Shown one piece after another: positions 1 to 32,744 of a stretch of 64,000 nt of DNA (positions within the stretch are counted from its first letter, which is position 1; each line of letters opens with the position of its first letter). The stretch is from an uncultured Dehalococcoidia bacterium. GTDB taxonomy: Bacteria > Chloroflexota > Dehalococcoidia > UBA6926. The position numbers and the translations under genes are program-made. The notes beneath the pieces were generated by a model. That model did not search any database. It was given only the letters and a program-made list of their open reading frames with translations, and was not told the origin of the DNA. The DNA lies in NCBI GenBank assembly GCA_964405845.1, contig CAYOPL010000012.1:95583-159582 (forward strand), written 5' to 3'.

Positions 1-3000
1 TGCCGATAGCCCCTGCGCCAGGCGACGTGATTCTCCGCGTCCGGACGCAGCAGCTCATCAACAAGGTCGGCGCCCCGCGCGCCGTCATCATCGAGGTCGA
101 TCATTCTCGCCTGTAGAGCGGGGATTTCGCGGATCAGGGACTTGCCGAATCCCCACAAAGCCGCCCCAGCTGGTTCGATGAGCGGCTCTCGCCCGATGGA
201 CTGCGCCCCGCGCGTAATGATCCATGTGCCACTCGAAGGCGTCATGTCCGCGTCCAGCAGTCCTTGGATCATCGCAAGGGCGGAGCCGCCTGCCTGCCGA
301 ACATCCGCAGACATTTCGTCCGTCGTCGCGTCTGAACCGTGACCGCTCGCCGCAATGAGATGAACGACGCCCTGCAGCGGAACGTCATCCGACAATCCTT
401 CGAACAGCGCCTGCCACGCGCCACGCTCCGTCATATCAATGTCTGCGAGCGTGACGGTCTGATATCGTTCTGCCAGTTCGGTCGCCAACTCCTCGGCGAT
501 GCCGCTGTCATCTGCGGCAATGATCCACGCGCCGGGGCGTTCGGGTATGGTCGCGGGCGCTCGGGCGAGGAAAACGGAACGGTCGGGGGTTTCGGAAGAA
601 TCACCTGAACCGAGTCCGAGAACCTGAGGGTCTTCAAACCCGGTGTCCGTTAGCGCCTGCGTCCACACCTCTGGTCCGACGATTCCATGATTGGTTCGAT
701 ACTGATCGTCAAAGCGCCACCACCCCTCCAGCGCGCCAAACGTCACGTCCTGCCAACCCATCCCCTCAAGGGCCTCTAGCGCAACCAGGTGGCCGGATGG
801 TGCCAGGAGACTCATGCAGTTGCGCAGAGTCTCATTAAGGGAAATGGTGTCATGCAGGACATTTGCGGCGATGACCAAATCATATCCATGTGAGCTATAA
901 CCCTGTTCGACCGGGTCTTTTTCAATATCGAGGGGCCGGTAGTCTATCGCGCCGTCAGCAGTTCCGAACCGCGCCTCCGCTTCTGAGAAGAATCCGGCGG
1001 AAATGTCCGTATATACGTACTCGAAACGTCCGGCGGGAAGGATGGGCAAGATGGATGCTGTGCCTGAGCCTGTCCCTGCTCCCACCTCCACAATCCGGAG
1101 CGTTCGCCCCTCAGGCAGCTCCCCGATGAGTGCGGCAACGGCATCCCCTAGCATGGTATTGACGGCATGGGTTGCGGGGGCGGTGTTGAACAGGTCGCCG
1201 GGCGTCGGATAGCCGCTTCCAAACAGCACCGTTAGAGGGTCTGTCTCTCTTCGCAGGATGCCGGGCAGTTCTGCCGCCGTCCGCTGGCATAGCGCGATTT
1301 CAATCGATCCATGAGGATAGCGCTCCAGCATGTCCGCGGCGAACGCGTTGGGATCAAAGGGCAAGTCTGCCGGCAGCGGGTCATCTGGTCCGACCAAAAC
1401 TCGAAAGCCGTCCGCTGTTTCCTGCATGACGCCCGCGCGCGCAAGAAGTTCAAAAACGCGCCTCAACAGCCTGGCGCGGTCGCCCGTGATATCCAGATCC
1501 GCGCTCAACGTCTCCGGGTCAATTACGCTTTCTGCGGCGTAGTGGCAGCCGAGATTACGGATCGCAGTCAGCGCGAACGAGTACGAAAGCCGTTCAAGAT
1601 CGGCCAAAAGACTTACGCGCTCGTCCCAATCCACACCTTCCCGCGAGAGATACTCTCTGAACGTCGGCGTAGCGGACTGAATCGTGGAAGGCTCCGCGAG
1701 GAAATCTGCGGGCTGCAATGGGAACAGGGGCCGGTCGCCCCAAACGATGTCGTAGAGCAGGTTTGACAAGCCCTCGTCCGCTGAGAATAGAGCCTCGCGA
1801 GTGGCTCGCTTGATCGTCAAGCCAATGATTCCGCCAAGCGGTTGACCATCGGGGCTGTAGATGGTCACGTCCATGGCGAATACCTCGGGCGCGCCGCGTC
1901 GGCTGTCCGTTGCGGCGTCCGAGGCTCTTTCGCGCATGGTGGCGTGGCAAAGGACGCGGGACGGCAACGGGCCGCTCATCCACAGTCGCTCCCACGCAAA
2001 GGGCAAGTACGTGGCCGTTCCGACGGAGTCGTCATCTATCCGTGCGGCGGATGCGACTTGCACACAGCCATCAAGGAGAATCGGATGGAAATCGAGCCCT
2101 TTCCGGACCAGTTCGTCAGGAAGAGCGACCTCTCCAAGAGACGCCCCGTTTCCTGCCCACAGTCCCGTTATGACTTGGAACAAAGGACCGAAATCGATTC
2201 GTATGTCTGCCTTGGAGCGATAGAATTCCGCAATGTCGATTTCACGCAGACCGTCGCGTACCTCGTCCGGTGATATGGCCGTCACCCCCTCCGGCAGACC
2301 ACGTTGCTCAAGCGCCGATCCCTTGGCGTGGAGCGTCCAGTCATTCTCGGCATCGGACGTGCTGTAGATTTCAAAACCGCGACCGTCCGGACCGTTCTCG
2401 GAATCCATGATCACCTGAACGGAGCGTTCAATGGACTCGGGCGCGTCGCCGTCTTGAGCATCGGCAAAGACCATCGCGGTCTGTATCTGCGTATCGTCGA
2501 GGGCCACAACCCCGTCGTGATCCGCGCGCGCGGCCGTCAAGGCTAATGCGGCGTACATCGCGCCCGGCGCGATGACCCGCCCAAAGACGCGATGGTCGCT
2601 CAGCCACGCAGGCTCGGAGGATGACGGACGGCTTTCAAAAGTCACCTCTCCACGTGGGGACTCATGGCGAATTCCCAGTAGCGGATGTCCCGCAATCGCT
2701 GTCGAGCGGGCGGACGTGTCAATCCAGTGGCGATACCGCTGGAAGGGATAGCCGGGAGCTATAACCCGTCGGCGCGACTCCCCCGCGAAGAGGCCGGTGA
2801 AATCGATAGGGATGCCGGTGTTATAGGCATTTGATACGGCGGTCACAAAGCCGCGGGTAAGGTCTATCGGCGGCTCTGTTTCATCGTGATGAGGTCTTTC
2901 CAGGCTCGAAAACATCGGCGGGTCCTTGACCGGCGCGCCTTGCGGCCAAAGCAGGGTAATCATGGGGCTCAGGGTTGTAGCCGGACCCAATTCAATGACA

Positions 3001-5519
3001 CAGTCCACGCCCAATTCGGCCAGGGACTCCATGGAGTTTCGGAAAAGAACCCTCTGCCGTGAATGGCGAATCCAGTAGTCGGAATCGATCTGAACATCCT
3101 CCTCAAGAGGCTTTCCGGTAAAGTCGCATATAAGCGTGACCTTGGGCCTTTGCGGTTCACGGATGATGTCGGAAGCTACGCTCTTCAGTTGGTCCAGTAC
3201 CGGCTCCAACATTGCGCTGTGAAATGCCGCGCTCGGTGGCAGAAGCCTGACGCGAATCTCCTGCTCCTCGAACTTCTGGGCAACAGCGTTTACGTCCCCG
3301 GCGGGGCCGCTGATCACTTGGTTGATGCCGTGGTCGAGGCCTATGCAGAGGCGATCGTCGCCTGAAACAGCATGCTGCTCTTCAATCGCTTCCTGTATGG
3401 CGTCTTGCGGCGCGAAGATAGCCGCCATCGCGGCGCCCTCTGCCATCGGGCTCATGATTGTTCCGCGCGCAGTGACTAGGCGCATACCCTCTTCAAGTGA
3501 GTAAACGCCGGCAGCTTGCGCGGCGGCAAACTCGCCGAGGCTGTGTCCCGCGACGACGGACGGTGTAACACCAGCGCTTTCCCATAGGGCAGTCAGCATG
3601 CACTCAACTGCGTACGTTGCAGGCTGCGCCCAGGCCGAGTCATCAAGGTCGCCTGAGCGCCCAAACATGACATCAAGCAACGATTCGCCTCGTGCGTTCT
3701 GTACAACCGCTTCACAACGATCGAGGACTTCTCGCGCTACTGGCTCGGTCTCATAGAGCGTCTGAGCCATGCCCGGCCACTGGCTGCCCTGTCCTGTATA
3801 GACAAAAGCAATCTTTGAGGGAGCCGTTGTCGGGTTCTGGGAACCGTTCTCCGCTATACGGGCAAGGCCCTCTCGCAGCGAATCGACATCCTTATACACA
3901 ACACCCGAGCGATAGCGGAAATGGCTCCGTCCGATGCTCGTCGTCCACGTCAGGTCTGACAGGGCGGGGTCGGACGCGAGAGTATCCGGAGATGGCCCGC
4001 CGGACGTCTCACTTAGTCGGTCAAGATAGTGCCCCGCAAGTTCCCGCAGAGCCTCCGGTGATCTGGCAGATAGCGGCAAAAGTCGCGTTTGGCGTGGCGT
4101 GACCCCATCAGAGTCACCAGAACTGAGGGATTCCACTTCCTTGGGCGCGCCCAGAGGCCACATGGTTGTCCCGGTTGACAGAGACGGCGTAGCAGGCGCG
4201 CCGTAGCCTTCGATGACGACGTGGGCATTCGTGCCGGACCATCCGAATCCGCTGACGGCGGCTCGCGGCGGTCTGCCATCCACGTGCGGCCACTCCATCG
4301 CCTCGGTCGGCACGCGCAGATTGGCCGTCTCCCAGTCGATTGACGTGCTGGGATTCTCGAAGTTGAGGTGCTTGGGGATGATGCCGCGCCGCATGCCCAG
4401 CACAACCTTCATGATTCCTGCAACGCCTGACGCAGGCTCGAGGTGCCCAAAGTTCGTCTTGACGGATCCGATAATCATCGGTTGATCTGCCGGTCGTCTG
4501 CTGCCGTACGCGGCCGCCGCGGCTTGCAGTTCAGGGGGGTCGCCAACCGGGGTCGCGGTTCCGTGCGCTTCCAGATAATCCACGTCCATGGCGGTAAGCC
4601 CGGCTGAGGCCAGCGCATCGCGAATAACGTTTTCCTGCGCGGAAGCGCTCGGCACAGTCAAACCTTGGCTTGCGCCGTCTTGGTTGATTGCAGAGCCGCG
4701 AATAACACCCCAGATGCGGTCGCCGTCCCGTTCGGCATCGCTCAGGCGCTTGAGCACGATGATTCCGCAACCCTCGCCGCGGAGATAGCCGTCCGCCGCC
4801 TCGTCGAACGTGCGGCATATACCGTTGGGTGAGAGCATTCCCGCCTGTCTTCGCAGGAACATAACCCTGCCGGAGAGCATCGCGTTGACGCCTCCGGCCA
4901 AGGCAAGATCCGACTCTCCGCGTTGAAGGCCGGCAATCGCCTGGTGCGTGGCGACGAGGGACGATGAGCATGCTGTGTCGATAGCAATGGCAGGCCCCTC
5001 AAGGCCAAGCGTGTAGGAAACACGCCCGATAGCGGTATTAAGGGTGCTCCCGCTGGCCGCATAGAGACTGGTGGCGGGATCATCCAGTTCAATTGACGCG
5101 ACGGCCGAGTACCTGTACTCGTTGTTGGCAATGCCGCCATAGACGCCTGTGCGGGTTCCCTTGAGGCTATCCGGGTCGATCCCCGCGTCTTCAAGGGCGC
5201 GCCAACTCGTTTCCAGCATGAGCCGCTGCTGCGGGTCCAGCAGCTGCGCTTCTATCGGCGCAATTCGGAAGAACTCAGCGTCGAACTTGTCGATATCGTC
5301 GATGAAGGCCCCATAGTGCGTGACGTCGCTCTGTGTGGAGGGCATCTCAAGGAACTCGCCCATCCGGCCCGGCCCTTCACCGATTATTCCCTCTGTTCGT
5401 ACCATGGTGCCGGAGGCCAGCAGCCGCCAATAGGCATCGTAGCCGTCAGCACCGGGAAATCGGCACGCCATACCGATGATGGCGATGGGTTCGTCCGTAT
5501 GGGAGTTATTTCCTGCCAT
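1..5519 (-). CDS. Modular type I polyketide synthase, N-terminal part. The order is KS - AT - DH - C-methyltransferase - start of KR, and the gene continues beyond the window start (C-terminus off the edge).
   Basis: Reverse-strand translation from the ATG at 5519 gives [23 protein letters not shown]... The KS active site [12 protein letters not shown] has its D codon at 4977-4979. The AT motif GHSLGE is at about 3531-3548. A DH HPLLG-type region lies at about 2650-2700. The SAM-binding motif [13 protein letters not shown] of a cMT is at about 1080-1100. All checkpoints share one frame (codon top coordinate = 2 mod 3). The ORF is absent from the track because it is edge-truncated. Confidence 0.9.
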
Positions 5520-5657
5520 GAGCCCCCGCATGTTTCGATAAGCACATTCTCGGGCCGCAAGCCTGTGTCCACTATAGATAGCCGTTTTGCAACTGCCAAT
5601 ACGTCACAGCCCGATTTATCTATCATAGAGGCGCAAGTGAGACCCTTTCTCAGGATC

Positions 5658-7310
5658 ATGTCAATCGTTCAAACGGCACTCGATAAACTTCCAGTTCGAC
5701 CCTCGTACAGCTGGGGCCAACTGCGCGGTGACGTTTTCGGCGGGCTAACCGCGGGCAGCATCGTCCTGCCCGCCTCCATCGGCTATGGTCTGATTTCCGG
5801 TCTGGGTGCCGTCGCCGGGCTCTATGGAGCTGTGGCGGTTAGCCTCTTTGGCGCGCTCTTTGGCGGCACCCGGGGGATGATCTCCGGCCCGAATATTCTC
5901 GTTACCCTGACGATGGCCGCCGTCGTCTCCCAATACGCCAACAGCCTTGCCGAGGCCGCAACGGCAGCCATTCTTGCCGGTCTGATTCAGATGGGCTTTG
6001 GCGCTCTACGGCTTGGGCGCTATGTCTCCTATATTCCGTATTCCCTGATTGCCGGGTTCTTCACGGCCTTTGGCATCCTTTTGATCATCAAACAAGGACT
6101 GCTTGCCTTCGGTGCATCCGCGGGCGGTACTGCGCTCGACAGCATCCGTGCATTTCCTGATGCGGCGCGAGACGCCAACCTGGAGGCCCTCGCGGTCGCG
6201 ATTTTCTGTGTTGCGTTGGGAGTGGCGTGGCGTGGAAGACTCTTGAAGATTGCCCCGTCTCAATTTGCCGTACTCGTCTGCGGGACAGTCGTGGGCGTTT
6301 TGTTCTTTGCAGGGGCGCCGACTATCGGGGCTATCCCACAAGGGCTGCCCGCGCTGGAACTGCCCCCCTTCTCACTTGATTTGGTAATCCGGCTTCTACA
6401 GCCCGCCTTTGCGATGGCTCTGTTGAGTTCTCTGGCGACACTCATCGTCGCTCTTCCCCTGGATACGATCACAGGTACCCAGCACAAGCCCAATCAGGAA
6501 TTGGGAGCGCAGGGCATCGGCAACGTGGCCGCCGGCCTCATCGGTGGCCTGCCCGGCGGCGTAACCCCCGGCACCTTCGTCAACGTGTTCAGCGGAGGAC
6601 GCACACAGGTGGCGGGATTGACCGTTTCCGCCCTTATCATCTCGGTCATCCTCTTCCTTGGCCCGATAGCAGAGCGCATTCCCTTGGCGGTCCTCGCAGG
6701 CATCCTGGCCATCAACGGCTGGAACGTCATAGATTGGCGGTTCGTCAAACGCCTGCATCGCGTGCCTGCCGACTACACAATCGTGATGCTCCTCACGTGT
6801 TCTCTCGTGCTGTTTGTGGACATCACTCTTGCGGTGGTAGCCGGTGTCGTCGTCTCCGCGATGACCGGCGCGAGACGGCGCGAGAAAATGGAAACCGAAA
6901 CGCTCATCTCCGCCCCTATTCTTGACAGCGTGTTCCTTGAGGACGATGAGGCAGACCCTTTCGAGGCGCGTGCGGGCATCGTTATTTTCCCTGATCGCGT
7001 CACGGTGGCCTCAACCCGTGAGGTGAGCCGCATCGTCCGTTCGGACATCCTCGGGCATCAGGTCGTCATCTTTGACATGTCCCGCACCTTCTTCATCGAC
7101 GATTCCGCTGCGGTGGCCATAGCGGACCTCATCAGGATCGCCGCTGTTCGCCGCCCGGGCCGCCTTGTCATCGCAGGACTGACAAGACCGGTCACGGAAA
7201 CTCTTGACGCCTTCGGTCTACGTGCCGCCTTGCCGGAAGGATTGATTGTTCCGGACATGGACACCGCAAGAGCCCGCGTACGCGACTTACTGGCCACCCG
7301 TTCACCCTGA
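5658..7310 (+). CDS. SulP family anion (sulfate/bicarbonate) transporter with a C-terminal STAS domain.
   Basis: MSIVQTALDKLPVRPSYSWGQLRGDVFGGLTAGSIVLPASIGYG... is a SulP signature, with multiple TM segments. The C-terminal STAS region reads VIFDMSRTFFIDDSAAVAIADL. The start was refined to the ATG at 5658, since the track ORF from 5316 overlaps the PKS start. The stop TGA lies inside the REP-like repeat. Confidence 0.85.
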   Translation: MSIVQTALDKLPVRPSYSWGQLRGDVFGGLTAGSIVLPASIGYGLISGLGAVAGLYGAVAVSLFGALFGGTRGMISGPNILVTLTMAAVVSQYANSLAEAATAAILAGLIQMGFGALRLGRYVSYIPYSLIAGFFTAFGILLIIKQGLLAFGASAGGTALDSIRAFPDAARDANLEALAVAIFCVALGVAWRGRLLKIAPSQFAVLVCGTVVGVLFFAGAPTIGAIPQGLPALELPPFSLDLVIRLLQPAFAMALLSSLATLIVALPLDTITGTQHKPNQELGAQGIGNVAAGLIGGLPGGVTPGTFVNVFSGGRTQVAGLTVSALIISVILFLGPIAERIPLAVLAGILAINGWNVIDWRFVKRLHRVPADYTIVMLLTCSLVLFVDITLAVVAGVVVSAMTGARRREKMETETLISAPILDSVFLEDDEADPFEARAGIVIFPDRVTVASTREVSRIVRSDILGHQVVIFDMSRTFFIDDSAAVAIADLIRIAAVRRPGRLVIAGLTRPVTETLDAFGLRAALPEGLIVPDMDTARARVRDLLATRSP

Positions 7311-7417
7311 GCTTGTCGAAGGGTGGGCCCCCTTCGTCATTCTCGCGAAAGCAGGAATCCAGCGCGGCGCGCGGCGCCGCCTCTACTGTCATTCTGAGCG
7401 CAGCGAAGAATCTGAAG
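7297..7417. repeat. REP-like composite repeat: modules A (tcaccctgagcttgtcgaagggtg), B (gtcattctcgcgaaagcaggaatccagcgcggcgcgcggcgccgcc) and C (gtcattctgagcgcagcgaagaatct).
   Basis: The hairpin modules can be read directly. The SulP stop codon is the TGA inside module A. Confidence 0.8.
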
Positions 7418-7451
7418 CGGTGATCAAAAGACCAGGGAGAGGCGCAGCAGG

Positions 7452-8618
7452 CTACCCCCAGACGTTCTGAGCGGTCTCCGCGACAACCCGCAGCTTCGCG
7501 TTCTGCTCGTCGATACTGAGGCGATTGCCAACGATGGACGTGCCGAACCCGCATTGCGGGCTAATGGCCAACTGCTCGCGCGGGAAGTGATGAGCCGCCT
7601 CGGCGATTCTGCCTGCAAGCTCTGAAGGCGTCTCGGCGCGCGGTGTCTTTGTCGTAACTAATCCCAGCGCCACCGTCTTGTCGTCTGGCACGCCGCGCAA
7701 AGGTTCGAATGAGCCTGAGCGCTCATCGTCGTACTCCAGCATGAGCCGATCCGCGTTGACGCGCTGAAGCACCGGCTCGACAATCCGGTCGTAACCGCCT
7801 TCGGCCAGCCAACGGCTGCCCTGATTGCCTCGTCAAAGATGGAACGCGAACGTCACATCCGTGAAGCCGTCCATCACCGCGTTGTCCAGCTCAATCCCTT
7901 GCGTGATCCAGTCCTCTCCGGTCCGACCCTGGGACTCGTAGAACGCTGCCCATGTCGGATCGAGGATAAGAGGGTAGTGCGGGGCGTCGAGCTGGATATA
8001 CGTTGCGCCGAGCCTAATTAGCTCTTCGATCTCCTCGCGGATGATCTGTGCGACGTCACTCAGAAACGCATCAAGCGTGGGGTAAGCCTCAATAGACTTA
8101 CTCGGCGACCAGAAATTAGCGAATAGGCTGGGACTCGGCAGGGTCACCTTCAGCATGCGCGTCGTGCGGCCCCGGAGATACGTAAACTCTTCTGCCGACA
8201 GGTGACGCTTGCGCCGCAGCTTGCCGACGACACCGAGCGTCGCTGGCCGCTCCTTGGGGGCGTTCCCCACCCGCTCATCGCCACGCCAATCACCCCAGAG
8301 AAACGCGTCAATATCGAACTCACCGAATCCTTCCACCGCCTCGGGCATCTGGCTTTGGAAAGACAACCGCCGCATCTCGCCGTCCGTGAGAACCTGTAAC
8401 CCGGCGTCCTCTTGCGCCGCAACCGCGCCATCAACCGCGGCGTCCTCGATGCGCTTGAACTCTGAAGGCGTGATTCGTCCGGCCGCAACGTCCTCGCGTG
8501 CAGCGAGCAACTCCGGCGGCCTGATCAGGCTCCCAACCACGTCGGCATGCGGCAAATTCGGCATGCTGCGGAGTGTTGCATATCGCCGGGGCTTGGGCAA
8601 GCGATTGATGGTAGTCAT
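7452..8618 (-). CDS. Protein of the MetE C-terminal-domain family (cobalamin-independent methionine synthase / homocysteine methyltransferase-like, Zn-dependent). A single in-frame TGA at 7833-7835 interrupts the frame; it is either a candidate selenocysteine codon or a nonsense mutation.
   Basis: Track ORFs 7833..8681(-) and 7452..7772(-) are in the same frame (8681-7772=909). The translation ...IQLDAPHYPL...DVTFAFHL-TGA-RGNQGSRWLAEGGYDRIVEPVLQRVNADRLMLEYDDE...LAISPQCGFGTS matches MetE C-domain motifs: IQIDE, the H-x-C Zn site, the Glu ligand, and NPDCGL. The LPHADVVGSLIRP segment near the N-terminus resembles the MetE LPTTTIGSFPR motif. The start is uncertain; ATGs at 8618 and 8564 are both possible. 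Confidence 0.7.
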
Positions 8619-8630
8619 TCCAGATAAAAG

Positions 8631-8674
8631 TTGCATGCACAATAAATGTGTCTGATAATAATTGTTATATGCAA
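8631..8674. promoter_or_regulatory. AT-rich imperfect palindrome TTGCATGCACAAT-N17-ATTGTTATATGCAA in the divergent intergenic region between the MetE-like gene and marR. It is a candidate MarR operator or shared promoter region.
   Basis: This is a low-GC island in a GC-rich genome. Inverted half-sites can be read directly. It lies about 85 bp upstream of the MarR start at 8760. Confidence 0.35.
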
Positions 8675-8759
8675 ATAACAAGGACCGTCTGAAATCTCGG
8701 CTGCTTGGGCGCAGCGTACATGCTCTATACTGACCTCAAATCACCATGGCGATATACGA

Positions 8760-9245
8760 GTGACAGACAACCACGATCAATCTCAGGGCGGCAATGACTC
8801 CTCGCAAGAGGCGCAGCCTATGGGCTTGGGTATCCAGGTGACCAGCCTGATGAACGCGGTTCTCAGGGGCGCTGCGACTGAATTGGAGCCCTACAACATT
8901 ACTCCTTTGGAGTTCACAGCCTTGCGCATTTGCATGGCCAGGGGTGAGACCACCATGACGGAGTTGGCAGTCGTATTGCCTGTCGATACCTCCCGCACAA
9001 GCCGCACCGTGACCGGGCTGGTTGACAAGGGCTTGCTCCGCAGGCGCCGACGCCGAGACGACCGGCGTGTTGTCATGCTGCGGCTTTCCGAACAGGGAGT
9101 TGAATTGACGTCCACGCTCCAGGCCCTGCTGCAGGCCTTCGATGCCAAACTGACGGAGAACGTCACTGAGGATGAACTAAGCGTATTCGAATCCGTGATT
9201 TCAAGAATCGCGTCCAACTACGCTGCCATGCAGGAGACTGAATAA
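8760..9245 (+). CDS. MarR family transcriptional regulator.
   Basis: A winged-helix MarR signature is present: ITPLEFTALRICMARGETTMTELAVVLPVDTSRTSRTVTGLVDKGLLRR...RVVMLRLSEQG. Confidence 0.85.
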   Translation: MTDNHDQSQGGNDSSQEAQPMGLGIQVTSLMNAVLRGAATELEPYNITPLEFTALRICMARGETTMTELAVVLPVDTSRTSRTVTGLVDKGLLRRRRRRDDRRVVMLRLSEQGVELTSTLQALLQAFDAKLTENVTEDELSVFESVISRIASNYAAMQETE

Positions 9246-14192: not shown

Positions 14193-16934
14193 TTAATCGT
14201 TCGGACGGGCGGTGCGGGTGAAGGACCATTCACCCCAGCCGTTGGCGTTCTTGGCCCGGACTTCGACCTCGTAGCGCGTGCCGCCGGTGAGGCTAGAGAT
14301 TCTCTGCTGCCTTGGATTGCTGCACCCGACGGATGGATCACAGATGCGCTGGGCCGGGCGCGGGAAGAGCACGGTGCCCTCAGTCCAGGTGGTGGCCCCC
14401 GCTGCGCGGTGGCGCACCTGGTAGGCGTAGGGCAGCGAACCGGTGGTGACCAGGTCCCACTCGACGAACAGGTTCTGGCTGCTGCCGGGGATGACCCTGA
14501 CTCGCGGCGGTATCACGGTCGTGGTGTTGCCGGCGGCCAAGGTGACGGTGAGGATCTCCGACTGGAAGCCCAATTTCGGCGAGTCCGTGGTCATCGGATC
14601 GTTGTCATTGCCGTCGGTGCGGGCGCGGACGTGGACCTGCCAGGTCCCGTTGGCCAGGCCGGTAAACGTGTGGCTGCGGTCGCTCACGCCCTTGACGGTG
14701 TTGGTCCAACTCCCGCTGGTGCCGGAGCGGTGGCGGACGATGTATTGGTCGATGCTGCCGACAGCGCCGATGGTGCTGGCTTCGCCCCACTCGACAACCA
14801 GCTTGCTGTTGCCGCCGGACGCGAACACCGCAGGGGCGCCCGGTCCGCCTTCCTCGCCGGAACTCTGGGTAGAATTGGTAGTCGCGCCCTCAATCGCGTG
14901 CCGGGCGAAAACCGAGATTGACCCGGTGGCTTCAGGCCGGACCAGGGTCCCTTTGGGGCAGTTTACTGTATCAGTTCCACCGCCGTCTGTGACGTCGCAG
15001 GTGGTCGTACCCCATTCCTTATTGCTTTTGGTTGTAATGAAGACTTGGCCGCCGATATGCTGAGGCCCGGTAGTGAACCAGACCTGGGTCGGCTCGGACC
15101 AGACCCGGGTGGCCGGTAGCCAGACCGACCAGGCGTTGGTGGCGGTCGAGGCGGGTTGGCCGCTGGCGTGGGTGCGGGCGGCGACGCGGACGGTGTAGTA
15201 CGCGCCGTCGGTCAACCCGGTGATGCGGTGAGCTGTGGCGGTAGCAAGTGCAGTGGCGCTGCTCGCGGTTCCGCTGCAGCCCGTCGTGCTGTTGGGATCG
15301 GGACAGGCCTTCCATTCCACAACAAATCCGACCATCGTGCGTCCCGTCGGCGTAGTGAACGAGTCCCAGTCAACTTCGATGCCATTGTTGTTGTTGGCCA
15401 CCGCAGTCACGCCGGACGGGCTGTTTGTGGCGGCGGTCGCCGATGGGTCCTGGCCGGTGATCGTGACCCTCTGGCCGGTGGTCGAGTACTTATCGTCGGA
15501 GGCGTCGTAGGCGGAGATGCGGAAGTCGTAGGCGACGTGGGGCTCGATGCCGTAGAAGATGAAGTGCGGCTGGCTGGCGTCGGTCTGCGTGTCGACGTAC
15601 CTCCACGGCAACGCGCTGTAACCGCGCCAGTAGTCGTCGCTGGAACGCTTGAGTTCGAGGTCGAACGTCTCGCGGGCCTCGCAGCCGGTGCCGTTGACGC
15701 TGGTGATCCGGCCGCTGACGGCGTTGCGGGCGTAGGGCTTGATCGCGAGCGTGATGCAGGCGTCCGGCACACTGTTGGCTTCCATCACGATGTAGTCGTC
15801 GGAGTCGCCCTCGTCGTACTGGATGCGCACGGAGAAGACGTAGTCGCCCGGGGTCAGGCCGCGGAAGGTGTGCGTCCGCGTCTCAGGGGAAACTGAGGCG
15901 GTCCAACTGACGGGACTCGACTCGCTGATGGCGGAGAGGACGAAGCCGGTCACTTCGCAGGACTCGTCCATGTTGTCGGGCAGCGTCCAGGAGACGACCG
16001 CGCCCTTGCCGATGGTCAGGGCGGAAACCGAGGAGGGCGCGGTTCGCTGGCAGTACACCTCGGTATCGTCGGAGGGCTCGAGTTGCCAGTTGACTTTGTG
16101 ACCTGAGTCGTGGGCCAGGCCGGAGTGGGCAAGGTTGGCGGCAGTCCCCGTGGCGGAGGACGCGATTGTGCCGCCGTTGAGCCTGAGGGAGTTGGGGAGG
16201 ACGGCTATGCCCTGGGTGGAGTAGTTGGGTTCTACGACGGTGTGGGCGAAGGTGAGCACATTTGCAGCGACGCCTGGCACGTAGGAGGCCCACTTGGTCC
16301 CCCAGTGGGCAGGGTCCATGTCAATGGCGATCTGCGGTGTTCCAGTGACCGTCACGTCTTCGCTAAAGGCGACCGACACCTCGATCACCTCGCCGTTGGC
16401 GTAGGTGTCGTCCTCGCCGGGGTTGGAGGTGATCGCGACGGCGGGCACGGTGGGCCCGGTGGGCCCGGTCACTTTCCAGTTCACCTTGTGGTTCGCGTCG
16501 TGGTCCAGTCCGGAATGGGACAGCGTAGCCGCTGTCCCCGATGAGACGGACGTGATCGAACCGCCGTAGAGTCTGAGGCTGTCCGCCAGCACGGCGATGC
16601 CCTGCGTGGAGTAGTTGGGTTCGACCACGGTATGAGCGAAGACGATGCTGCTGCCGCCGCTGCCGCTGTTGTAGAAGGCCCATTTCGTGCCCCAGTCGGC
16701 CGGGTCCATGTCGATCTTGATATACGGCGTGCCGGTGACGTTCACCGTTTCGCTGAAGGTCAGCGTCACGCGGATGTTCTGACCTAAGGCGTAGGTCTTG
16801 TCGGGGCCGGCGCCGGAGGTGATGGCCACGCCGGTCACTGAAGGGCCGTCCGCGGCGTTCACCGAACTGCCTCCCCACAAGGACACGGCGAGAGCCGCGA
16901 GGAAGAGGACAAGCACGGCTGCGGTGCGGCGCAA
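14193..16934 (-). CDS. Large secreted cell-surface protein (adhesin-like). It has two tandem N-terminal repeat domains of about 150 aa, followed by several fibronectin type III / Ig-like beta domains.
   Basis: The signal peptide is MRRTAAVLVLFLAALAVSLWGGSSVNA. Repeat 1 (VTGVAITSGAGPDKTYALGQNIRVTLTFSE...MDPADWGTKWAFY...HTVVEPNYSTQGIAVL...HKVNWKV) is duplicated as ...VAITSNPGEDDTYANGEVIEVSVAFSE...MDPAHWGTKWASY...HTVVEPNYSTQGIAVL...HKVNWQL. The downstream regions are FN3-like, rich in T/S/G with W..Y..V..R patterns. Confidence 0.65.
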   Translation of the reverse strand: MRRTAAVLVLFLAALAVSLWGGSSVNAADGPSVTGVAITSGAGPDKTYALGQNIRVTLTFSETVNVTGTPYIKIDMDPADWGTKWAFYNSGSGGSSIVFAHTVVEPNYSTQGIAVLADSLRLYGGSITSVSSGTAATLSHSGLDHDANHKVNWKVTGPTGPTVPAVAITSNPGEDDTYANGEVIEVSVAFSEDVTVTGTPQIAIDMDPAHWGTKWASYVPGVAANVLTFAHTVVEPNYSTQGIAVLPNSLRLNGGTIASSATGTAANLAHSGLAHDSGHKVNWQLEPSDDTEVYCQRTAPSSVSALTIGKGAVVSWTLPDNMDESCEVTGFVLSAISESSPVSWTASVSPETRTHTFRGLTPGDYVFSVRIQYDEGDSDDYIVMEANSVPDACITLAIKPYARNAVSGRITSVNGTGCEARETFDLELKRSSDDYWRGYSALPWRYVDTQTDASQPHFIFYGIEPHVAYDFRISAYDASDDKYSTTGQRVTITGQDPSATAATNSPSGVTAVANNNNGIEVDWDSFTTPTGRTMVGFVVEWKACPDPNSTTGCSGTASSATALATATAHRITGLTDGAYYTVRVAARTHASGQPASTATNAWSVWLPATRVWSEPTQVWFTTGPQHIGGQVFITTKSNKEWGTTTCDVTDGGGTDTVNCPKGTLVRPEATGSISVFARHAIEGATTNSTQSSGEEGGPGAPAVFASGGNSKLVVEWGEASTIGAVGSIDQYIVRHRSGTSGSWTNTVKGVSDRSHTFTGLANGTWQVHVRARTDGNDNDPMTTDSPKLGFQSEILTVTLAAGNTTTVIPPRVRVIPGSSQNLFVEWDLVTTGSLPYAYQVRHRAAGATTWTEGTVLFPRPAQRICDPSVGCSNPRQQRISSLTGGTRYEVEVRAKNANGWGEWSFTRTARPND
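15990..16850. repeat. Intragenic tandem duplication of about 430 bp x2 encoding the two N-terminal repeat domains of the adhesin-like protein.
   Basis: Near-identical peptide blocks (HTVVEPNYSTQGIAVL, MDPAxWGTKWA) occur twice. Mirrored + strand track ORFs overlap the same region. Confidence 0.6.
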
Positions 16935-27425: not shown

Positions 27426-28553
27426 ATGGGGAAAGGGACTCAACTAATCGGAGTGCTGACGGTTTTTATGGCCGTCGTTCTCCTCTCAGGCTGCCAGTTG
27501 GCGTTGCCGCAGAGCACGCTCCATCCGGCAGGAGACGTAGCCCAGACTCAACAGAACCTCTTTGTCTTTATCTTCTGGATTGCCGTCGCCATCTTTATCG
27601 GCGTTCAGGGCTTCCTTACCATCGCCGTGCTCAAGTACCGTGCCAGGCGTGGTCGCGAAAGTGACATCCCGCCCCAGACTCACGGCAACACTCCTCTGGA
27701 AATCGGCTGGACAATTGCTCCTTCCTTAATCGTTATCGCCATCACTATCCCAACGGTCGCGGGCATCGGCGCAACGTATGATCCCCCGTCCCAATATGCT
27801 GATGACCCTTCCCTCACCATTGAGGTCGTTGGCCACCAATGGTGGTGGGAGTACCGCTATCTGGATGAGAACGGCGACCTTGATTTCACCACTGCCAATG
27901 AATTGCACATCCCCGTCGATACCGTCATCAAGCTCAAGCTCTCCTCGAACGACGTCATTCACAGTTTCTCCGTTCCACGCCTCGCGGGCAGCCGTGACGT
28001 CGTGCCCGGTCGCGTCAACCGCATGTGGTTGAACGCGACGGAAACCGGCGTCTACGCGGGGCAGTGTAAGGAGTTCTGTGGAGATTCACACGCTTTGATG
28101 CGTACGGTCGCCTTTGCCCGTGAACTTGACGACTACGAAGCATGGGCCGCCAATGAGCGCCGCCCGGCAGTCAACATGACTGCCGCCATGGAACCCGGCT
28201 GGGCGGTCTTTGTGGACAAGGGTTGCCGGAGCTGCCACAGCATCAGTGGTGAGACCGAAGACGAGTACGAACTAGCTATCGGCCTGAAGGCTCCGAACCT
28301 GAGCCACTTCGGGTCCCGCGTGACCATCGCCGCCAATACCCTCCATAAGGGTCCGGCGGATATCAATATGGGCGCATTCTTTGCGGATGTCCCGACTGAT
28401 CCGGACTTCATGCAGCGCGACCCGGCGGCAGAGAACCTGCGACAGTGGCTCGATAATGCGCCGGACGTGAAGCCCGGCACTGAGATGCCTGACCATGAAT
28501 TCACCGACCAAGAGCTTGATGATCTCGTATTCTTCCTGGAGAGCCTGAAGTAA
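27426..28553 (+). CDS. ctaC: Cytochrome c oxidase subunit II (caa3-type) with a C-terminal cytochrome c domain.
   Basis: A signal/lipoprotein-like N-terminus and 2 TM are present. The CuA site is H..GQCKEFCGDSHALM, and the heme c site is CRSCHSI. Confidence 0.88.
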   Translation: MGKGTQLIGVLTVFMAVVLLSGCQLALPQSTLHPAGDVAQTQQNLFVFIFWIAVAIFIGVQGFLTIAVLKYRARRGRESDIPPQTHGNTPLEIGWTIAPSLIVIAITIPTVAGIGATYDPPSQYADDPSLTIEVVGHQWWWEYRYLDENGDLDFTTANELHIPVDTVIKLKLSSNDVIHSFSVPRLAGSRDVVPGRVNRMWLNATETGVYAGQCKEFCGDSHALMRTVAFARELDDYEAWAANERRPAVNMTAAMEPGWAVFVDKGCRSCHSISGETEDEYELAIGLKAPNLSHFGSRVTIAANTLHKGPADINMGAFFADVPTDPDFMQRDPAAENLRQWLDNAPDVKPGTEMPDHEFTDQELDDLVFFLESLK

Positions 28554-28576
28554 CGGGCGGCAGGCTGAAGGAGTAG

Positions 28577-30439
28577 ATGACGATGGCTATGCTAGGGGGC
28601 TTACTCGAGAGACCCACCGGGACTACCGGTATCTGGAGCTGGCTCACGACGATCGATCACAAGAGGATCGGCACGCTCTACCTTGTCACGGCCTTCTTCT
28701 TCTTCCTTGTGGGCGGCATTGAGGCAAGCCTCATGCGGCTGCAATTGGCGGTGCCGGATTCGTCCATCATTAGCGCAAACGTATTCAGCCAGCTGTTTAC
28801 GATGCACGCGCTGACAATGATCTTCCTGGCCATCATGCCGCTCAGCGTCGCCTTCTTTAACTGGATCGTTCCGCTTCAGATCGGCGCGCGGGACGTCGCA
28901 TTTCCCCGCTTGAACGCCCTCAGCTATTGGGTGTTCCTCTTCGGCGCGATCATCCTGAACCTTGGCTGGTTCACCATGACCGCTCCGGCCGCAGGCTGGT
29001 TTGCCTACGCCAACCTGACCAACACCACGTTCTCACCCACCAATGGCATGGACTTCTACGTCCTCGGCCTGCTCGTGCTGGGAACATCCTCACTGCTCGG
29101 CGCGTTCAACTTCATCGTGACCATCATCAATCTGCGCGCCCCTGGCATGTCCCTGATGCGGATGCCCATCTTCACGTGGATGGCATTCATCACGTCCTTC
29201 CTGCTGGCTCTGGCCATGCCCGTCATCACCATCGGCTTGGTCGAGTTGGGCTTCGACCGTTTCTTTGGCACCAATTTCTTCGTGTTCGAGCGCGGCGGTG
29301 ATGTCCTCCTCTGGCAGCACCTCTTCTGGGTGTTTGGCCATCCCGAGGTGTACATCCTGATCCTGCCGGCCATGGGAATCATCTCCGAGATCCTGCCAAC
29401 CTTCTCCCGCAAGCCGCTCTTCGGCTTCCCGGTCGTCGTCTTCTCCGGCCTGACCATCGCATTCCTCGGATGGTCCGTCTGGGCGCACCACATGTTCGCC
29501 GCCGGTCTCGGACCTGTGCCGGACGCAGTTTTCGCGACGACAACAATGGCAATCGCTATCCCCACTGGTGTGAAAGTCTTCAACTGGCTGGCCACGATTT
29601 GGGGAGGAAACATACAGCTCAAGACGCCGATGTACTTTGCGCTCGGCTTTATTGCGCTCTTCACCATCGGCGGGCTTAGCGGTATGACACACGCGGCCGC
29701 TCCGTCAGACCTCCAGCAGACGGACACCTATTACATCGTTGCCCACCTTCATTACGTGCTCTTCGGCGGCTCGATCATGGCCATCCTTGGTGGAATCTTC
29801 TACTGGTTCCCGAAGATGACAGGCCGCATGATGAGCGACTACTTGGGCAAGTGGAGCTTCTGGCTCGTTATGATCGGCATGAACATGACGTTTGGTCCGA
29901 TGCACTACCTGGGTCTCGTCGGAATGCCACGACGGAACTTCACGTACCCCGAAGGGATGGGATGGGATATCTGGAACCTGGTCGCGTCCCTCAGCGTGTT
30001 GTTCATGATCTTTGGCATCGGCTTGTTCGTGTGGAATGCTCTCCGCAGCGCCCGTAGTGGTGAAGTGGCCGGCGATGACCCGTGGGATGCCCGTACGCTT
30101 GAGTGGGCAATGTCCTCTCCGCCGCCCCACTACAACTTCGCGGAGATTCCCGTCGTCCATGGCCGTGACGCCCTCTGGGAGCAAAAGCACCCGGATGAAG
30201 AGCACGCCGCCCCGCGCCCCGTTCCCGCCGGTGGCGCAGAGGAGGCGGACGAGCACCATGACATCCATATGCCGAGCCCGTCCTATTTCCCGTTTATCGT
30301 CGCGCTCGGCATCTTCCTGCTCGGAATCACAATGTTGCTCTACCAAGTCGCTGCGCCCGCCGGCTACGCCGCTGGGGCAATCGGAATGATCCTCCTGCTC
30401 TGGGGTTCTTACGGCTGGATCTTTGAGCCAACGGACTGA
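28577..30439 (+). CDS. ctaD: Cytochrome c oxidase subunit I.
   Basis: 12 or more TM are present with heme-copper oxidase His ligands (WFFGHPEVYILILP, HHMF, YVVAHFHYVL equivalents). Confidence 0.9.
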   Translation: MTMAMLGGLLERPTGTTGIWSWLTTIDHKRIGTLYLVTAFFFFLVGGIEASLMRLQLAVPDSSIISANVFSQLFTMHALTMIFLAIMPLSVAFFNWIVPLQIGARDVAFPRLNALSYWVFLFGAIILNLGWFTMTAPAAGWFAYANLTNTTFSPTNGMDFYVLGLLVLGTSSLLGAFNFIVTIINLRAPGMSLMRMPIFTWMAFITSFLLALAMPVITIGLVELGFDRFFGTNFFVFERGGDVLLWQHLFWVFGHPEVYILILPAMGIISEILPTFSRKPLFGFPVVVFSGLTIAFLGWSVWAHHMFAAGLGPVPDAVFATTTMAIAIPTGVKVFNWLATIWGGNIQLKTPMYFALGFIALFTIGGLSGMTHAAAPSDLQQTDTYYIVAHLHYVLFGGSIMAILGGIFYWFPKMTGRMMSDYLGKWSFWLVMIGMNMTFGPMHYLGLVGMPRRNFTYPEGMGWDIWNLVASLSVLFMIFGIGLFVWNALRSARSGEVAGDDPWDARTLEWAMSSPPPHYNFAEIPVVHGRDALWEQKHPDEEHAAPRPVPAGGAEEADEHHDIHMPSPSYFPFIVALGIFLLGITMLLYQVAAPAGYAAGAIGMILLLWGSYGWIFEPTD

Positions 30440-30477
30440 CAAGAAGACTGACAGGGAAACACTAAAGGAAATCGCAC

Positions 30478-31077
30478 GTGGCACACGACGCGACAATGGG
30501 ACAGGCTGAGGCTCACTACACAACAATGGGCCTCGACCATCGGAAGATCCTCATGTGGGTCTTCCTGGCCTCCGACTGCCTGTTCTTCGGCGCCCTGATC
30601 TCCACCTATATGGTGTACAGGAGCAACGTGCCGTCCGGACCCGGACCGGAAATTTTTGACATCCCGTACACCTCTGTCAGCGCGTTCGTCCTACTGATGA
30701 GTTCGTTGACAATGGTGCTGGCTCTCGCAGCGCTTCAGCGCGGCAACTCTCGGGCGGCACGGCTTTGGCTGCTTGCGACGGCCCTGCAGGGCGCCGTCTT
30801 CCTCGGCGGTCAGTTCTACGAATTCAATGTATTCGTTGATCAGGGGCTGACCATCACCAATAGCGTCTTTGGCACAAGCTTCTTCGTCCTCACCGGATTC
30901 CACGGGACGCACGTCGCCATCGGAGTGTTCATGCTCCTCACGCTTGTCGGCGCGTCTTATATGGGACGACTCAAGCCCAAGCATCACCTGACGGTTGAGC
31001 TTGTAGGCCTCTATTGGCACTTCGTTGATATCGTCTGGATCGTCATCTTTACGGTGGTGTATCTCATCCCGTCGTAG
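30478..31077 (+). CDS. ctaE: Cytochrome c oxidase subunit III.
   Basis: [20 protein letters not shown]-type C-terminus (GLYWHFVDIVWIVIF). Confidence 0.85.
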   Translation: MAHDATMGQAEAHYTTMGLDHRKILMWVFLASDCLFFGALISTYMVYRSNVPSGPGPEIFDIPYTSVSAFVLLMSSLTMVLALAALQRGNSRAARLWLLATALQGAVFLGGQFYEFNVFVDQGLTITNSVFGTSFFVLTGFHGTHVAIGVFMLLTLVGASYMGRLKPKHHLTVELVGLYWHFVDIVWIVIFTVVYLIPS

Positions 31078-31115
31078 GACGGGCTGAAACGGCACGCAAA
31101 GCGAGGAACGACAAA

Positions 31116-31433
31116 ATGGCGACAGCAGAGCAACAGGCACACACGGAAGATCACCCGACTCCGCGTACCTACGTCAACGTCGCGATCATCCTCTCGGTCA
31201 TCACGATCATTGAGGTCGCCATCGTCATCGTTGAAGTGCCCTCCGTCATCCTGATTTCATCTCTGCTTGCCCTATCGGCGGTCAAGTTCGCTTTTGTCGT
31301 CGGCTGGTTCATGCATCTCAAGTTCGACGCCCGCCTCTACCAGGCGCTCTTCCTCGGCGGCCTATTCCTTGCCATAGCAGTCCTCTTGGCGCTGGTGGCC
31401 CTCTTTGAGAACTTCACCCTGCCCGGCACGTAG
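31116..31433 (+). CDS. ctaF: Cytochrome c oxidase subunit IV (prokaryotic caa3-type small subunit).
   Basis: This is a 105-aa, 3-TM protein immediately after ctaE (YVNVAIILSVITIIEVAIV...). Confidence 0.6.
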   Translation: MATAEQQAHTEDHPTPRTYVNVAIILSVITIIEVAIVIVEVPSVILISSLLALSAVKFAFVVGWFMHLKFDARLYQALFLGGLFLAIAVLLALVALFENFTLPGT

Positions 31434-31477
31434 TGGCTGAATACGAATTGTGAATACACGAGGATAGCGGAGCAACC

Positions 31478-31753
31478 ATGGCGCACCAAGACGAACAGGG
31501 CAAGACGAACAACGTTCAGGATCGACTCGTTGTTCCGATTCTGCTGCCGGTCGTTTGCCTCATCATCACCATCGCGCTGATTGTTGGCATTGGCCAACTC
31601 CTGTACTCCGTCGTCCCTCACGACTACGTAACGCTGGCCGGTGAAAAAGTCTACTACTCCGTTCCTGCCGCGCTTGGCTTGGCGCTTTTCTTCCTGCTGG
31701 GATTCGCTTTCTTGGCGTCTCGCGCGCCTGACGACGACGGCGGCGACTCCTAA
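31478..31753 (+). CDS. Small 2-TM membrane protein of unknown function inside the oxidase operon.
   Basis: It is 91 aa with two hydrophobic helices (LVVPILLPVVCLIITIALIVGIG / YYSVPAALGLALFFLLGFAFLA). Its operon position is between ctaF and ctaG. Confidence 0.45.
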   Translation: MAHQDEQGKTNNVQDRLVVPILLPVVCLIITIALIVGIGQLLYSVVPHDYVTLAGEKVYYSVPAALGLALFFLLGFAFLASRAPDDDGGDS

Positions 31754-31853
31754 TAGTGCGACGCCGCTGATAGAGGCGGCAGCCCATTTGACTTTGGCCA
31801 TTCCAGTGCGCTCCTGTCTCCGCAACGCGCCGGAAAAGGCGTAGGATTGCCGC

Positions 31854-32744
31854 ATGAATGACCTGGGTGATTACCTGCTCGCGTGGTCGTGGGAGCCGCT
31901 AACTCTGTTCTTCGTCGGCCTCCTCGGATTCGCCTACGTCAGGGGACTGCGAGGCCTTAATCCGATTAAGGTTCGCGTGGTCACAAATTGGCGTGCCATG
32001 TCCTTTGCGACAGGCCTGACCGTGCTCCTACTCGCCCTCATTTCACCCATCGATACCCTCGGCGGTCGACTGTTCGCCTTCCACATGACCCAGCACATGC
32101 TCCTGATGCACGTCGCCGTGCCGCTGATTCTACTGGGCGCGCCGGTTCTCCCAGTTGCCCGCGGCATGGGGTACGGAATTCGCAGACTAACCCTCATCAA
32201 GCTCGCCAGAGCTCCCCAGGTGCGCTTCATCTTTCATATCCTCATCCACCCTCTCGTTGGCTTGGCAGTCTTCGTGGGCGTTATCTGGTCATGGCACGTC
32301 CCGGGAGCCTACGCCGCCGCCGTCACCAACGACTTCGCTCACATCGGCCAGCACGCCAGCTTCATTACTGCCGCAACACTCTTCTGGTGGGCCATCATCG
32401 ACCCGACACCCATCCGGGGCAAAATTCCCTACTTGGCCCGACTCGTCGTCGTCGTGATGGCGCTGTCGCTGACGTTCCCTCTGGCCGCGATGCTGACATT
32501 TGCGGCAAATCCTTGGTATGCCCCCTACATCGGTCAGGAACCACTCTGGGGAATCGACTCCATGACTGACCAGCAGATCGGTGGACTCATCATGTGGGTC
32601 GGCGGGATCGCGCCCTACTTCCTTGCCATTGCCGGCCTGTTCATCGTTGCAGTCCGGCGTGATGAAGAGGACACGCGCCGCTCGCGTGCCGCCCTCTACA
32701 ACAACTCGCCCAATCATGTGCCGCATAGGCCGGCGACCACGTGA
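31854..32744 (+). CDS. Caa3-type cytochrome oxidase assembly factor CtaG-like membrane protein.
   Basis: It is a 7-TM protein with conserved His clusters (FHMTQHMLLMH, FAHIGQHASF). Operon context supports the call. Confidence 0.55.
   Translation: MNDLGDYLLAWSWEPLTLFFVGLLGFAYVRGLRGLNPIKVRVVTNWRAMSFATGLTVLLLALISPIDTLGGRLFAFHMTQHMLLMHVAVPLILLGAPVLPVARGMGYGIRRLTLIKLARAPQVRFIFHILIHPLVGLAVFVGVIWSWHVPGAYAAAVTNDFAHIGQHASFITAATLFWWAIIDPTPIRGKIPYLARLVVVVMALSLTFPLAAMLTFAANPWYAPYIGQEPLWGIDSMTDQQIGGLIMWVGGIAPYFLAIAGLFIVAVRRDEEDTRRSRAALYNNSPNHVPHRPATT

Follow-up and report, generated by a model that had tools for sequence, protein, structure and literature searches.

A probable supA-type polyketide synthase gene in the chromosome of an uncultured Dehalococcoidia bacterium

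Introduction

Is the polyketide synthase (PKS) gene that runs off the left end of a stretch of Dehalococcoidia DNA one module of a longer assembly line, or the greater part of a synthase that stands alone, and which lipid would such an enzyme make? The stretch, called the window below, is the whole of the DNA analysed: 64,000 nucleotides from an uncultured Dehalococcoidia bacterium of the Chloroflexota (assembly GCA_964405845.1, contig CAYOPL010000012.1, positions 95,583 to 159,582). We find that its first 5,519 positions probably belong to a supA-type gene of a Dehalococcoidia chromosome and cover the 5' part of that gene, whose product would consist of a single fully reducing module and a terminal second ketosynthase (KS2).

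Sup-type synthases are the most abundant PKS genes in sponge microbiomes, and the cluster supA to supE reportedly goes back to Fieseler et al. 2007 and Hochmuth et al. 2010. The family to which the gene probably belongs has been known since 2007 and has already been reported from Chloroflexota. The name stands for ‘sponge symbiont ubiquitous PKS’ and denotes unusual, small, monomodular enzymes of extreme sequence diversity that are widespread in, and exclusive to, high-microbial-abundance sponges; they were proposed to make mid-chain-branched fatty acids, and their source organism was still unresolved in 2014 (PMC4245539). SUP-like clusters have been described in metagenome-assembled genomes (MAGs) of Chloroflexota, there from sponges, and of Spirochaetota, Proteobacteria and Acidobacteriota (PMC9426513).

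An uninterrupted gene for a type I polyketide synthase

Translation of the minus strand from 5519 to 3 gives a single open frame of 1839 codons with zero stops and no frameshifts, as had been proposed in an earlier reading made from the letters of the DNA (the sequence-only reading). P0364, a public protein of 3193 aa, agrees with the window translation at every one of the 1839 positions (its residues 5-1843; 100% identity), so that the gene in the window is the P0364 gene or an identical allele. The window holds the first 58% of the gene, and ~4.05 kb more lie beyond its left edge. The closest database protein, P0001 (3187 aa), is 92% identical and shares a 90% cluster with P0364, and thousands of homologues at 47-55% identity are present in metagenome assemblies.

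1..5519, minus strand: supA-like type I PKS gene, 5' 58% (open frame; 100% identity to P0364, 92% to P0001)

Two in-frame start codons come into question. The ATG at 5531, four codons upstream of that at 5519, is used in public gene calls (MRGLMAGNN...) and gives the full length of 3193 aa, while the 5519 ATG gives 3189 aa. The latter is the likelier start, because a GGGGG run lies 5-9 nucleotides ahead of it and most homologues begin at MAG. With either codon at most 13 residues precede the ketosynthase (KS), and across 25 aligned family members this distance is 13 to ~50 residues; therefore the enzymes have neither a loading module nor a sizeable docking domain, which agrees with the sequence-only reading that the gene begins directly with a KS. 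The domains encoded in the window, all on the minus strand, are:

4200..5492, minus strand: first ketosynthase (KS1), residues 10-440 (Pfam PF00109/PF02801)
3807..4199, minus strand: linker between KS and acyltransferase (KS-AT linker), residues 441-571 (Pfam PF16197, PF22621, PF22336)
2955..3806, minus strand: acyltransferase (AT), residues 572-855 (Pfam PF00698 and motif table)
2688..2954, minus strand: post-AT linker, residues 856-944 (sequence)
1770..2687, minus strand: dehydratase (DH), residues 945-1250 (Pfam PF21089, PF14765)
561..1712, minus strand: C-methyltransferase (cMT) dependent on S-adenosylmethionine (SAM), lid and core, residues 1270-1653 (match to CurJ 5THY)
3..560, minus strand: structural (pseudo-)ketoreductase (KR) subdomain, residues 1654-1839, cut by the window edge (AlphaFold2 and Foldseek)

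The Pfam matches themselves span residues 10-388 (KS), 390-558 (KS-AT linker), 572-851 (AT), 945-1244 (DH, in two parts) and 1459-1629 (methyltransferase core). Together with the 5THY match and a fold model of the last stretch, they uphold the order KS-AT-DH-cMT into KR that had been read from the letters.

Judged by its motifs, the window protein is a type I (cis-AT) PKS, in which a KS with a Cys-His-His triad is fused to an AT of the GHSxG type. The triad of KS1 is formed by Cys184 (DTACSSS), His319 (EAHGT) and His359 (GHLE), which are invariant in 25 family members. Of the two KS primer motifs, DPQQ is present as DPQQR, invariant in the family, and HGTGT, the form found in most members, reads HGTAT in the window. 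The AT carries GHSLGE at residues 658-663, a motif already quoted in the sequence-only reading, and AAFHS; the specificity check proposed there thus turns out in favour of malonyl-CoA for both motifs, read by the HAFH/YASH rule (PMC3908369, citing Reeves et al. 2001). Within the family the second motif varies, with xAFHS in the clade of the window protein and xAYHS or xGYHS elsewhere.

The DH motifs H976xxxGxxxxP and D1150xxxQ are present and conserved in the family. Residues 1270-1653 match the CurJ C-methyltransferase structure 5THY over their whole length (E = 6e-62) and contain motif I, VEVGAGTG, at 1477-1484, also quoted before. His1556 (NVLH) and Glu1582, which lie 26 residues apart and are invariant in 25 sequences, we take to be the catalytic His/Glu pair as in the CurJ and PksCT methyltransferases.

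In the sequence-only reading the gene left the window within a KR. A KR-related fold is indeed predicted there, but it is the structural half only, and an enoylreductase (ER) precedes the catalytic half. For the last 195 residues, profiles of KR and of short-chain dehydrogenases/reductases matched below threshold only. An AlphaFold2 model of these residues, built from a 20-sequence alignment, is Rossmann-like (pLDDT 83.7, pTM 0.82), and its best Foldseek matches in the PDB are PKS KRs, namely Lsd14, a MAS-like PKS (5BP4), the PKS of 4IMP and EryKR1, with TM scores of 0.67-0.70. No GxGxxG nucleotide motif was found in the last 195 window residues. Because this glycine-rich motif is missing and an ER follows in the full-length protein, the last stretch of the window is, by the model, the structural half of the KR and not the catalytic one.

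The remainder of the protein and a second ketosynthase

Beyond the window, P0364 continues with the ER (residues 1890-2177), the catalytic KR (2192-2369) and an acyl carrier protein (ACP) domain (2474-2539). Its C-terminus comprises KS2 (~2590-2961) and a KS-AT linker (~2964-3126), directly followed by the post-AT motif LPGYPFQRRRFW and the stop codon; there is no AT between the linker of KS2 and the post-AT motif. Aligned together with their linkers, KS2 and KS1 share 49.6% identity, and the C-terminal 45 residues of an orthologue, after KS2, show 58% identity with the post-AT linker of module 1. By sequence, KS2 resembles a condensing region that has lost its AT.

The order of the whole enzyme is KS-AT-DH-cMT-(structural KR)-ER-KR-ACP, then the AT-less KS2. 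Alignments of 24-25 family members show conserved catalytic residues in KS1, AT, DH, cMT, ER, ACP and KS2, with the Cys-His-His of KS2 kept in most of them, and full-length proteins contain a single PP-binding match. Six of the 24 full-length homologues sampled (P0012, P0016, P0032, P0040, P0072 and P0119) lack the ER, as seen from alignment gaps and the absence of ER Pfam domains, and keep the other domains.

The catalytic KR departs from the usual pattern at one position. Where AmphB has its catalytic Tyr, P0364, P0001, 23 of the 24 family members and all sup-like loci have His (GQANHAAAN). In P0364 and P0001 this is residue ~2339, outside the window, at ~17015-17017 of L001, the locus that encodes the 92%-identical PKS. 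Forty-seven KRs in other fetched PKS loci carry Tyr; the exceptions are the Okeania locus L019, the locus L040, a weak match in L035 and some Bryobacterales modules. TGGLGGIG, the NADPH motif, is retained in the His-KR, as are the Lys, Ser and LxD motifs, and because of these we think that this KR works; the point bears on the product. In two loci from Bryobacterales MAGs (L012, L013), several sup-like modules stand in tandem, with three KR matches ~7.6 kb apart that have His in some cases and Tyr in others. Judged by these sequences, the single-module family has multimodular relatives in Acidobacteriota.

A conserved gene set accompanies the synthase

In L001 the PKS gene is followed by genes for an 81-aa ACP, a 244-aa phosphopantetheinyl transferase (PPTase) that is HetI-like (Sfp/HetI-type) and a 303-aa alpha/beta-hydrolase, and a 550-aa SulP is encoded divergently upstream. 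Tblastn of the L001 proteins over 80 fetched loci found this arrangement of SulP and PKS-ACP-PPTase-hydrolase complete in 10 Dehalococcoidia species-level MAGs. The orthologous Dehalococcoidia PKS is one gene of 3187-3193 aa, and the 10 syntenic Dehalococcoidia loci contain no further PKS gene within 10 kb. The sequence-only reading had expected a cluster extending leftwards and had spoken of a PKS module. The cluster does continue to the left in the orthologous loci, where the ACP, PPTase and hydrolase genes fall ~6 kb to the left and give way to unrelated genes, but there is no larger assembly line, and the notion of a module in such a line has to be dropped.

The divergent SulP transporter noted in the sequence-only reading is present in the window, and it is a part of the conserved locus rather than a mere boundary:

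5658-7310, plus strand: SulP-family permease, 550 aa, Sulfate_transp and STAS domains (Pfam), divergent from the PKS gene
5520..5657, no strand: divergent intergenic region between the PKS and SulP genes, 138 bp (alignment and consensus scan)

Its best NCBIfam model is BicA, with 333 bits against a cut-off of 880, so that no specificity can be assigned. A consensus scan of the intergenic region returned one sigma-70-like site, where 0.3 were expected: TTGGCA-17-TATAGT on the minus strand at 5599..5571, with 10 of 12 consensus matches, ~50 nucleotides upstream of the PKS start. We regard it as a putative promoter. Positions 5400-5760 of the window align with L001 over 361 bases that span the intergenic region, at 94% identity. 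No direct or inverted repeats were reported at 5500-5680, and an Rfam scan of 1-9000 gave no match.

Outside these loci the gene set is partly rearranged. The ACP, PPTase and hydrolase are still found with a 51%-identical PKS in a Chloroflexota MAG. Loci of Ca. Poriferisocius (Acidimicrobiia; L081), of an ER-less variant (L082) and of a Gammaproteobacteria MAG (L083) encode a PKS, an ACP of ~80 aa, a PPTase, a highly conserved hydrolase and a nearby permease, in shuffled order. The permeases of these three loci are of the Xan_ur_permease type (575-590 aa). Those of L081 and L083 were considered as orthologues of the window SulP and rejected, as BLAST similarity was undetectable. The transporter is on these grounds a recurrent but non-orthologous companion of the PKS set, and looks like a case of non-orthologous replacement.

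The PKS itself varies more than its partners. In five Dehalococcoidia loci (L005-L008 and L014) compared with L001, the N-terminal part of the PKS is 63-67% identical, whereas SulP is 79-89%, the PPTase 79-81% and the hydrolase 85-90% identical; this means that the PKS either changes more quickly than its partners or was exchanged.

Assignment to the Sup family

Neither the Sup family nor the terminal AT-less KS figured in the sequence-only reading. We think it very likely that the gene belongs to the Sup clade, on account of its architecture, the number of its homologues, the taxa and bin names of its relatives and the adjoining permease. The gene encodes a type I PKS that is small, consists of a single module and has its methyltransferase in line, and its homologues in metagenomes are many and diverse. 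The identical protein of 3193 aa has one reducing module and a terminal KS, in keeping with the definition of SupA as small and single-module (PMC4245539). An in-line methyltransferase and a full reductive loop are likewise found, with cMT and DH in the window and ER and KR in P0364, the KR having His for Tyr. SupE is a permease (PMC3908369), and every lineage examined has a permease gene beside the PKS; the families differ, SulP in the window and Xan_ur_permease-type in Acidimicrobiia and Gammaproteobacteria, and neither is assigned here as the counterpart of SupE. The occurrence in Chloroflexota (PMC9426513) and the proposed methyl-branched fatty acid product (PMC4245539) are further likenesses, and none of the features tested contradicts membership in Sup.

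The host is probably a sponge symbiont, to judge by the names of related MAGs. The closest relatives are uncultured Dehalococcoidia or Chloroflexota MAGs, and names that hint at sponges include Ca. Poriferisocius and the bins APA_bin_32, SB0661_bin_39 and ROBB21.

Several points weigh against this assignment or against the product that goes with it. The family was identified by published descriptions and not by reference SupA sequences (clones pAPKS18 and pSW1H8) or sponge KS amplicons. Searches of protein databases with SulP and with a DPQQ-HGTGT KS fragment returned no entries named SupE or SupA and no sponge KS amplicons, the KS fragment matching mostly short fragments. The sponge origin of the window rests on names of related MAGs. 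The window contains neither the C-terminal 42% of the protein nor the downstream genes, which we take from the identical protein and the orthologous loci. To our knowledge no Sup PKS product has ever been demonstrated experimentally, the link to branched fatty acids being correlative, and in the literature on SupA function and domain order we found surveys only. Lastly, if the His-KR were non-reducing, no reduced 2-methylacyl intermediate would form.

A possible pathway

Since KS1 has no loading module, we propose that it receives its primer as an acyl thioester from primary fatty-acid metabolism. The malonyl-type AT would load the ACP domain of the module (ACP1), and KS1 would catalyse one condensation and thus one extension. 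At the beta-keto stage the cMT would add a SAM-derived methyl group to C2; since the AT is of malonyl type, the methyl branch would come from SAM by way of the cMT and not from methylmalonyl-CoA. KR, DH and ER would then reduce the intermediate to 2-methylacyl-ACP. KS2 may take over the alpha-branched chain for one extension on the free-standing ACP, which would need to be loaded by the same AT or by FabD. The chain would finally be elongated by a type II fatty acid synthase (FAS), which would place the methyl branch in mid-chain, or be released by the hydrolase. This scheme is reportedly in essence the published Sup hypothesis.

Comparison with known systems and alternative readings

The best matches among solved structures come from the curacin pathway, CurL for KS-AT (4MZ0, E = 1e-189) and CurJ for the cMT (5THY). 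The CurJ methyltransferase is said to act on the beta-keto intermediate. The Cur proteins, however, are modules of a long colinear line with docking elements, whereas the window protein stands alone. Another single-module PKS family typical of sponge symbionts is Swf, short for ‘sponge symbiont widespread FAS-like PKS’ (PMC3908369). SwfA has the order KS-AT-DH-ER-KR-ACP with no cMT, and has DPQ(I/V)R instead of DPQQ, and HATGT (PMC3908369). The window protein has a cMT and DPQQR, and its partners are an ACP, a PPTase and a hydrolase and not SwfB and SwfC; these differences rule out that it is SwfA.

The mycocerosic acid synthase (MAS) of mycobacteria is, like the MAS-like PKSs, also a single-module, fully reducing enzyme (KS-AT-DH-ER-KR-ACP) that extends a fatty-acyl primer to a methyl-branched lipid and has no loading module; its structure 9D2Y matches residues 10-1264, and the KR region finds its structural match in 5BP4. 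The branches made by MAS derive from methylmalonyl-CoA, and MAS lacks an active C-methyltransferase. By contrast, the window protein has a malonyl-type AT and a CurJ-like cMT, and MAS has neither a terminal second KS nor a dedicated free-standing ACP. As far as motifs can tell, the malonyl-type AT (GHSLGE/AAFHS) and the active-looking cMT rule out a methylmalonyl-dependent MAS-type enzyme. LovB and other fungal highly reducing PKSs, as well as animal FAS, share the order KS-AT-DH-cMT-(structural KR)-ER-KR-ACP, and 7CPX, a structure of LovB, aligns with the condensing region and DH (residues 6-1179) as well as with the cMT. The window protein differs in being bacterial, in its extra C-terminal AT-less KS and in the ACP, PPTase and hydrolase encoded downstream.

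Nevertheless, an iterative mode after the manner of LovB or MAS has to be considered, in which several cycles would start from an acetyl or short acyl primer, with methylation in some or all rounds, and the enzyme would build the whole (multi)methyl-branched chain. The order shared with LovB, the 7CPX and 9D2Y matches and the absence of a loading module, typical for iterative synthases, would suit such a mode; a conserved, intact KS2 and a dedicated free ACP suggest instead a defined hand-off after module 1, and the fatty acids linked to Sup are termed mid-chain-branched (PMC4245539), and we therefore judge iteration unlikely. It is also conceivable that the KR, with His where AmphB has Tyr, is dead or altered, and that the module delivers a 2-methyl-3-oxoacyl or otherwise less reduced chain, which KS2 and the hydrolase would turn into an oxo-lipid, a hydroxy-lipid or a ketone instead of a saturated branched fatty acid. 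The substitution in 23 of 24 members and in all sup-like loci, against 47 Tyr KRs elsewhere, speaks for this. We still consider it very unlikely, as the TGGLGGIG, Lys, Ser and LxD motifs are kept, the conservation of His across phyla points to a working site, and the conserved DH and ER motifs would be useless without a beta-hydroxy intermediate; moreover, six of 24 members have lost the ER and kept the KR, so that the reductive loop is open to changes that spare the KR.

That the protein is one extension module of a larger multimodular line with its other genes to the left is almost certainly wrong. The cut of the window inside the gene would allow it, and the Bryobacterales loci L012 and L013 do carry tandem related modules, but the identical protein P0364 ends after KS2 at 3193 aa, and in 10 syntenic Dehalococcoidia loci only the ACP, PPTase and hydrolase genes come next. 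The sequence-only reading had also likened the gene to synthases of polyunsaturated fatty acids (PUFAs), glycolipids and methyl-branched lipids. The last of these likenesses stands, in line with the literature on Sup (PMC4245539). The other two do not: a PfaA-like PUFA synthase or a component of a heterocyst-glycolipid synthase would account for a weak partial KS match to the PfaA model and for the HetI-like PPTase, and yet the match to PfaA (TIGR02813) reaches 256 bits against a cut-off of 1010 and covers the KS only, and there are no tandem ACPs, full-length proteins having a single PP-binding match. Beside the PKS in the loci examined there is no second PKS or KS gene, such as one of the PfaC type (KS/chain length factor), a FabA-type DH not having been specifically searched for. 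A cMT and an ER in the order of animal FAS and highly reducing PKSs are not features of PUFA or heterocyst-glycolipid systems, and we give this possibility virtually no weight.

Under the preferred reading, a single Sup-type module followed by KS2, the window sets one Sup-type gene in a Dehalococcoidia chromosome among housekeeping genes, with a putative promoter region and a permease neighbour. The placement is in line with what later surveys of MAGs found (PMC9426513); it is a further example and brings no new principle. Its practical value is that of a template in full context for expression, the full-length sequence being public as P0364. The features that most deserve tests are the His-for-Tyr KR and the AT-less terminal KS. 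It is decidedly unlikely, in our estimate, that Sup clusters make a different lipid, either through a non-reducing or altered His-KR or through beta-keto release by KS2, the free ACP and the hydrolase. If they did, the saturated mid-chain-branched fatty acids that have been assumed since 2007 would not be what the abundant Sup clusters of sponges produce, and the adjacent anion permease might export that different lipid.

Other genes in the window

Among the orthologous loci, genes beyond the cluster were annotated only in L001, where the hydrolase gene gives way to one gene of the 3-dmu-9_3-mt family, one for cation efflux and genes for AddAB-type helicases. On its right side the window is syntenic with L001 and encodes SulP, Meth_synt_2, MarR, a methyltransferase, a GAF-type hybrid histidine kinase and a Na/H exchanger. 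The stretch that separates the methyltransferase from the GAF histidine kinase holds, in the window, a gene for a fibronectin type III (fn3) repeat protein as well as two or three unannotated open reading frames; L001 lacks the fn3 gene there, and its syntenic counterpart is shorter by ~4.4 kb. Sponge symbionts typically encode eukaryote-like repeat proteins.

14193-16934, minus strand: fibronectin type III repeat protein, 913 aa
10809-13996, minus strand: two or three unannotated open reading frames

The remainder of the 64-kb window is housekeeping (caa3 oxidase, CcmF, UvrB, FtsK, tRNA synthetase). GC content is even across the window, and no signs of a mobile island or of further lipid genes were found in it. 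For respiration the window encodes a caa3-type cytochrome c oxidase (COX2, which carries a cytochrome c domain, COX1, CtaG and a fused CtaA-CtaB) together with CcmF; these genes indicate an aerobic lifestyle of this member of the Dehalococcoidia.

27426-34645, plus strand, and 39723-41723, minus strand: caa3-type cytochrome c oxidase set and CcmF

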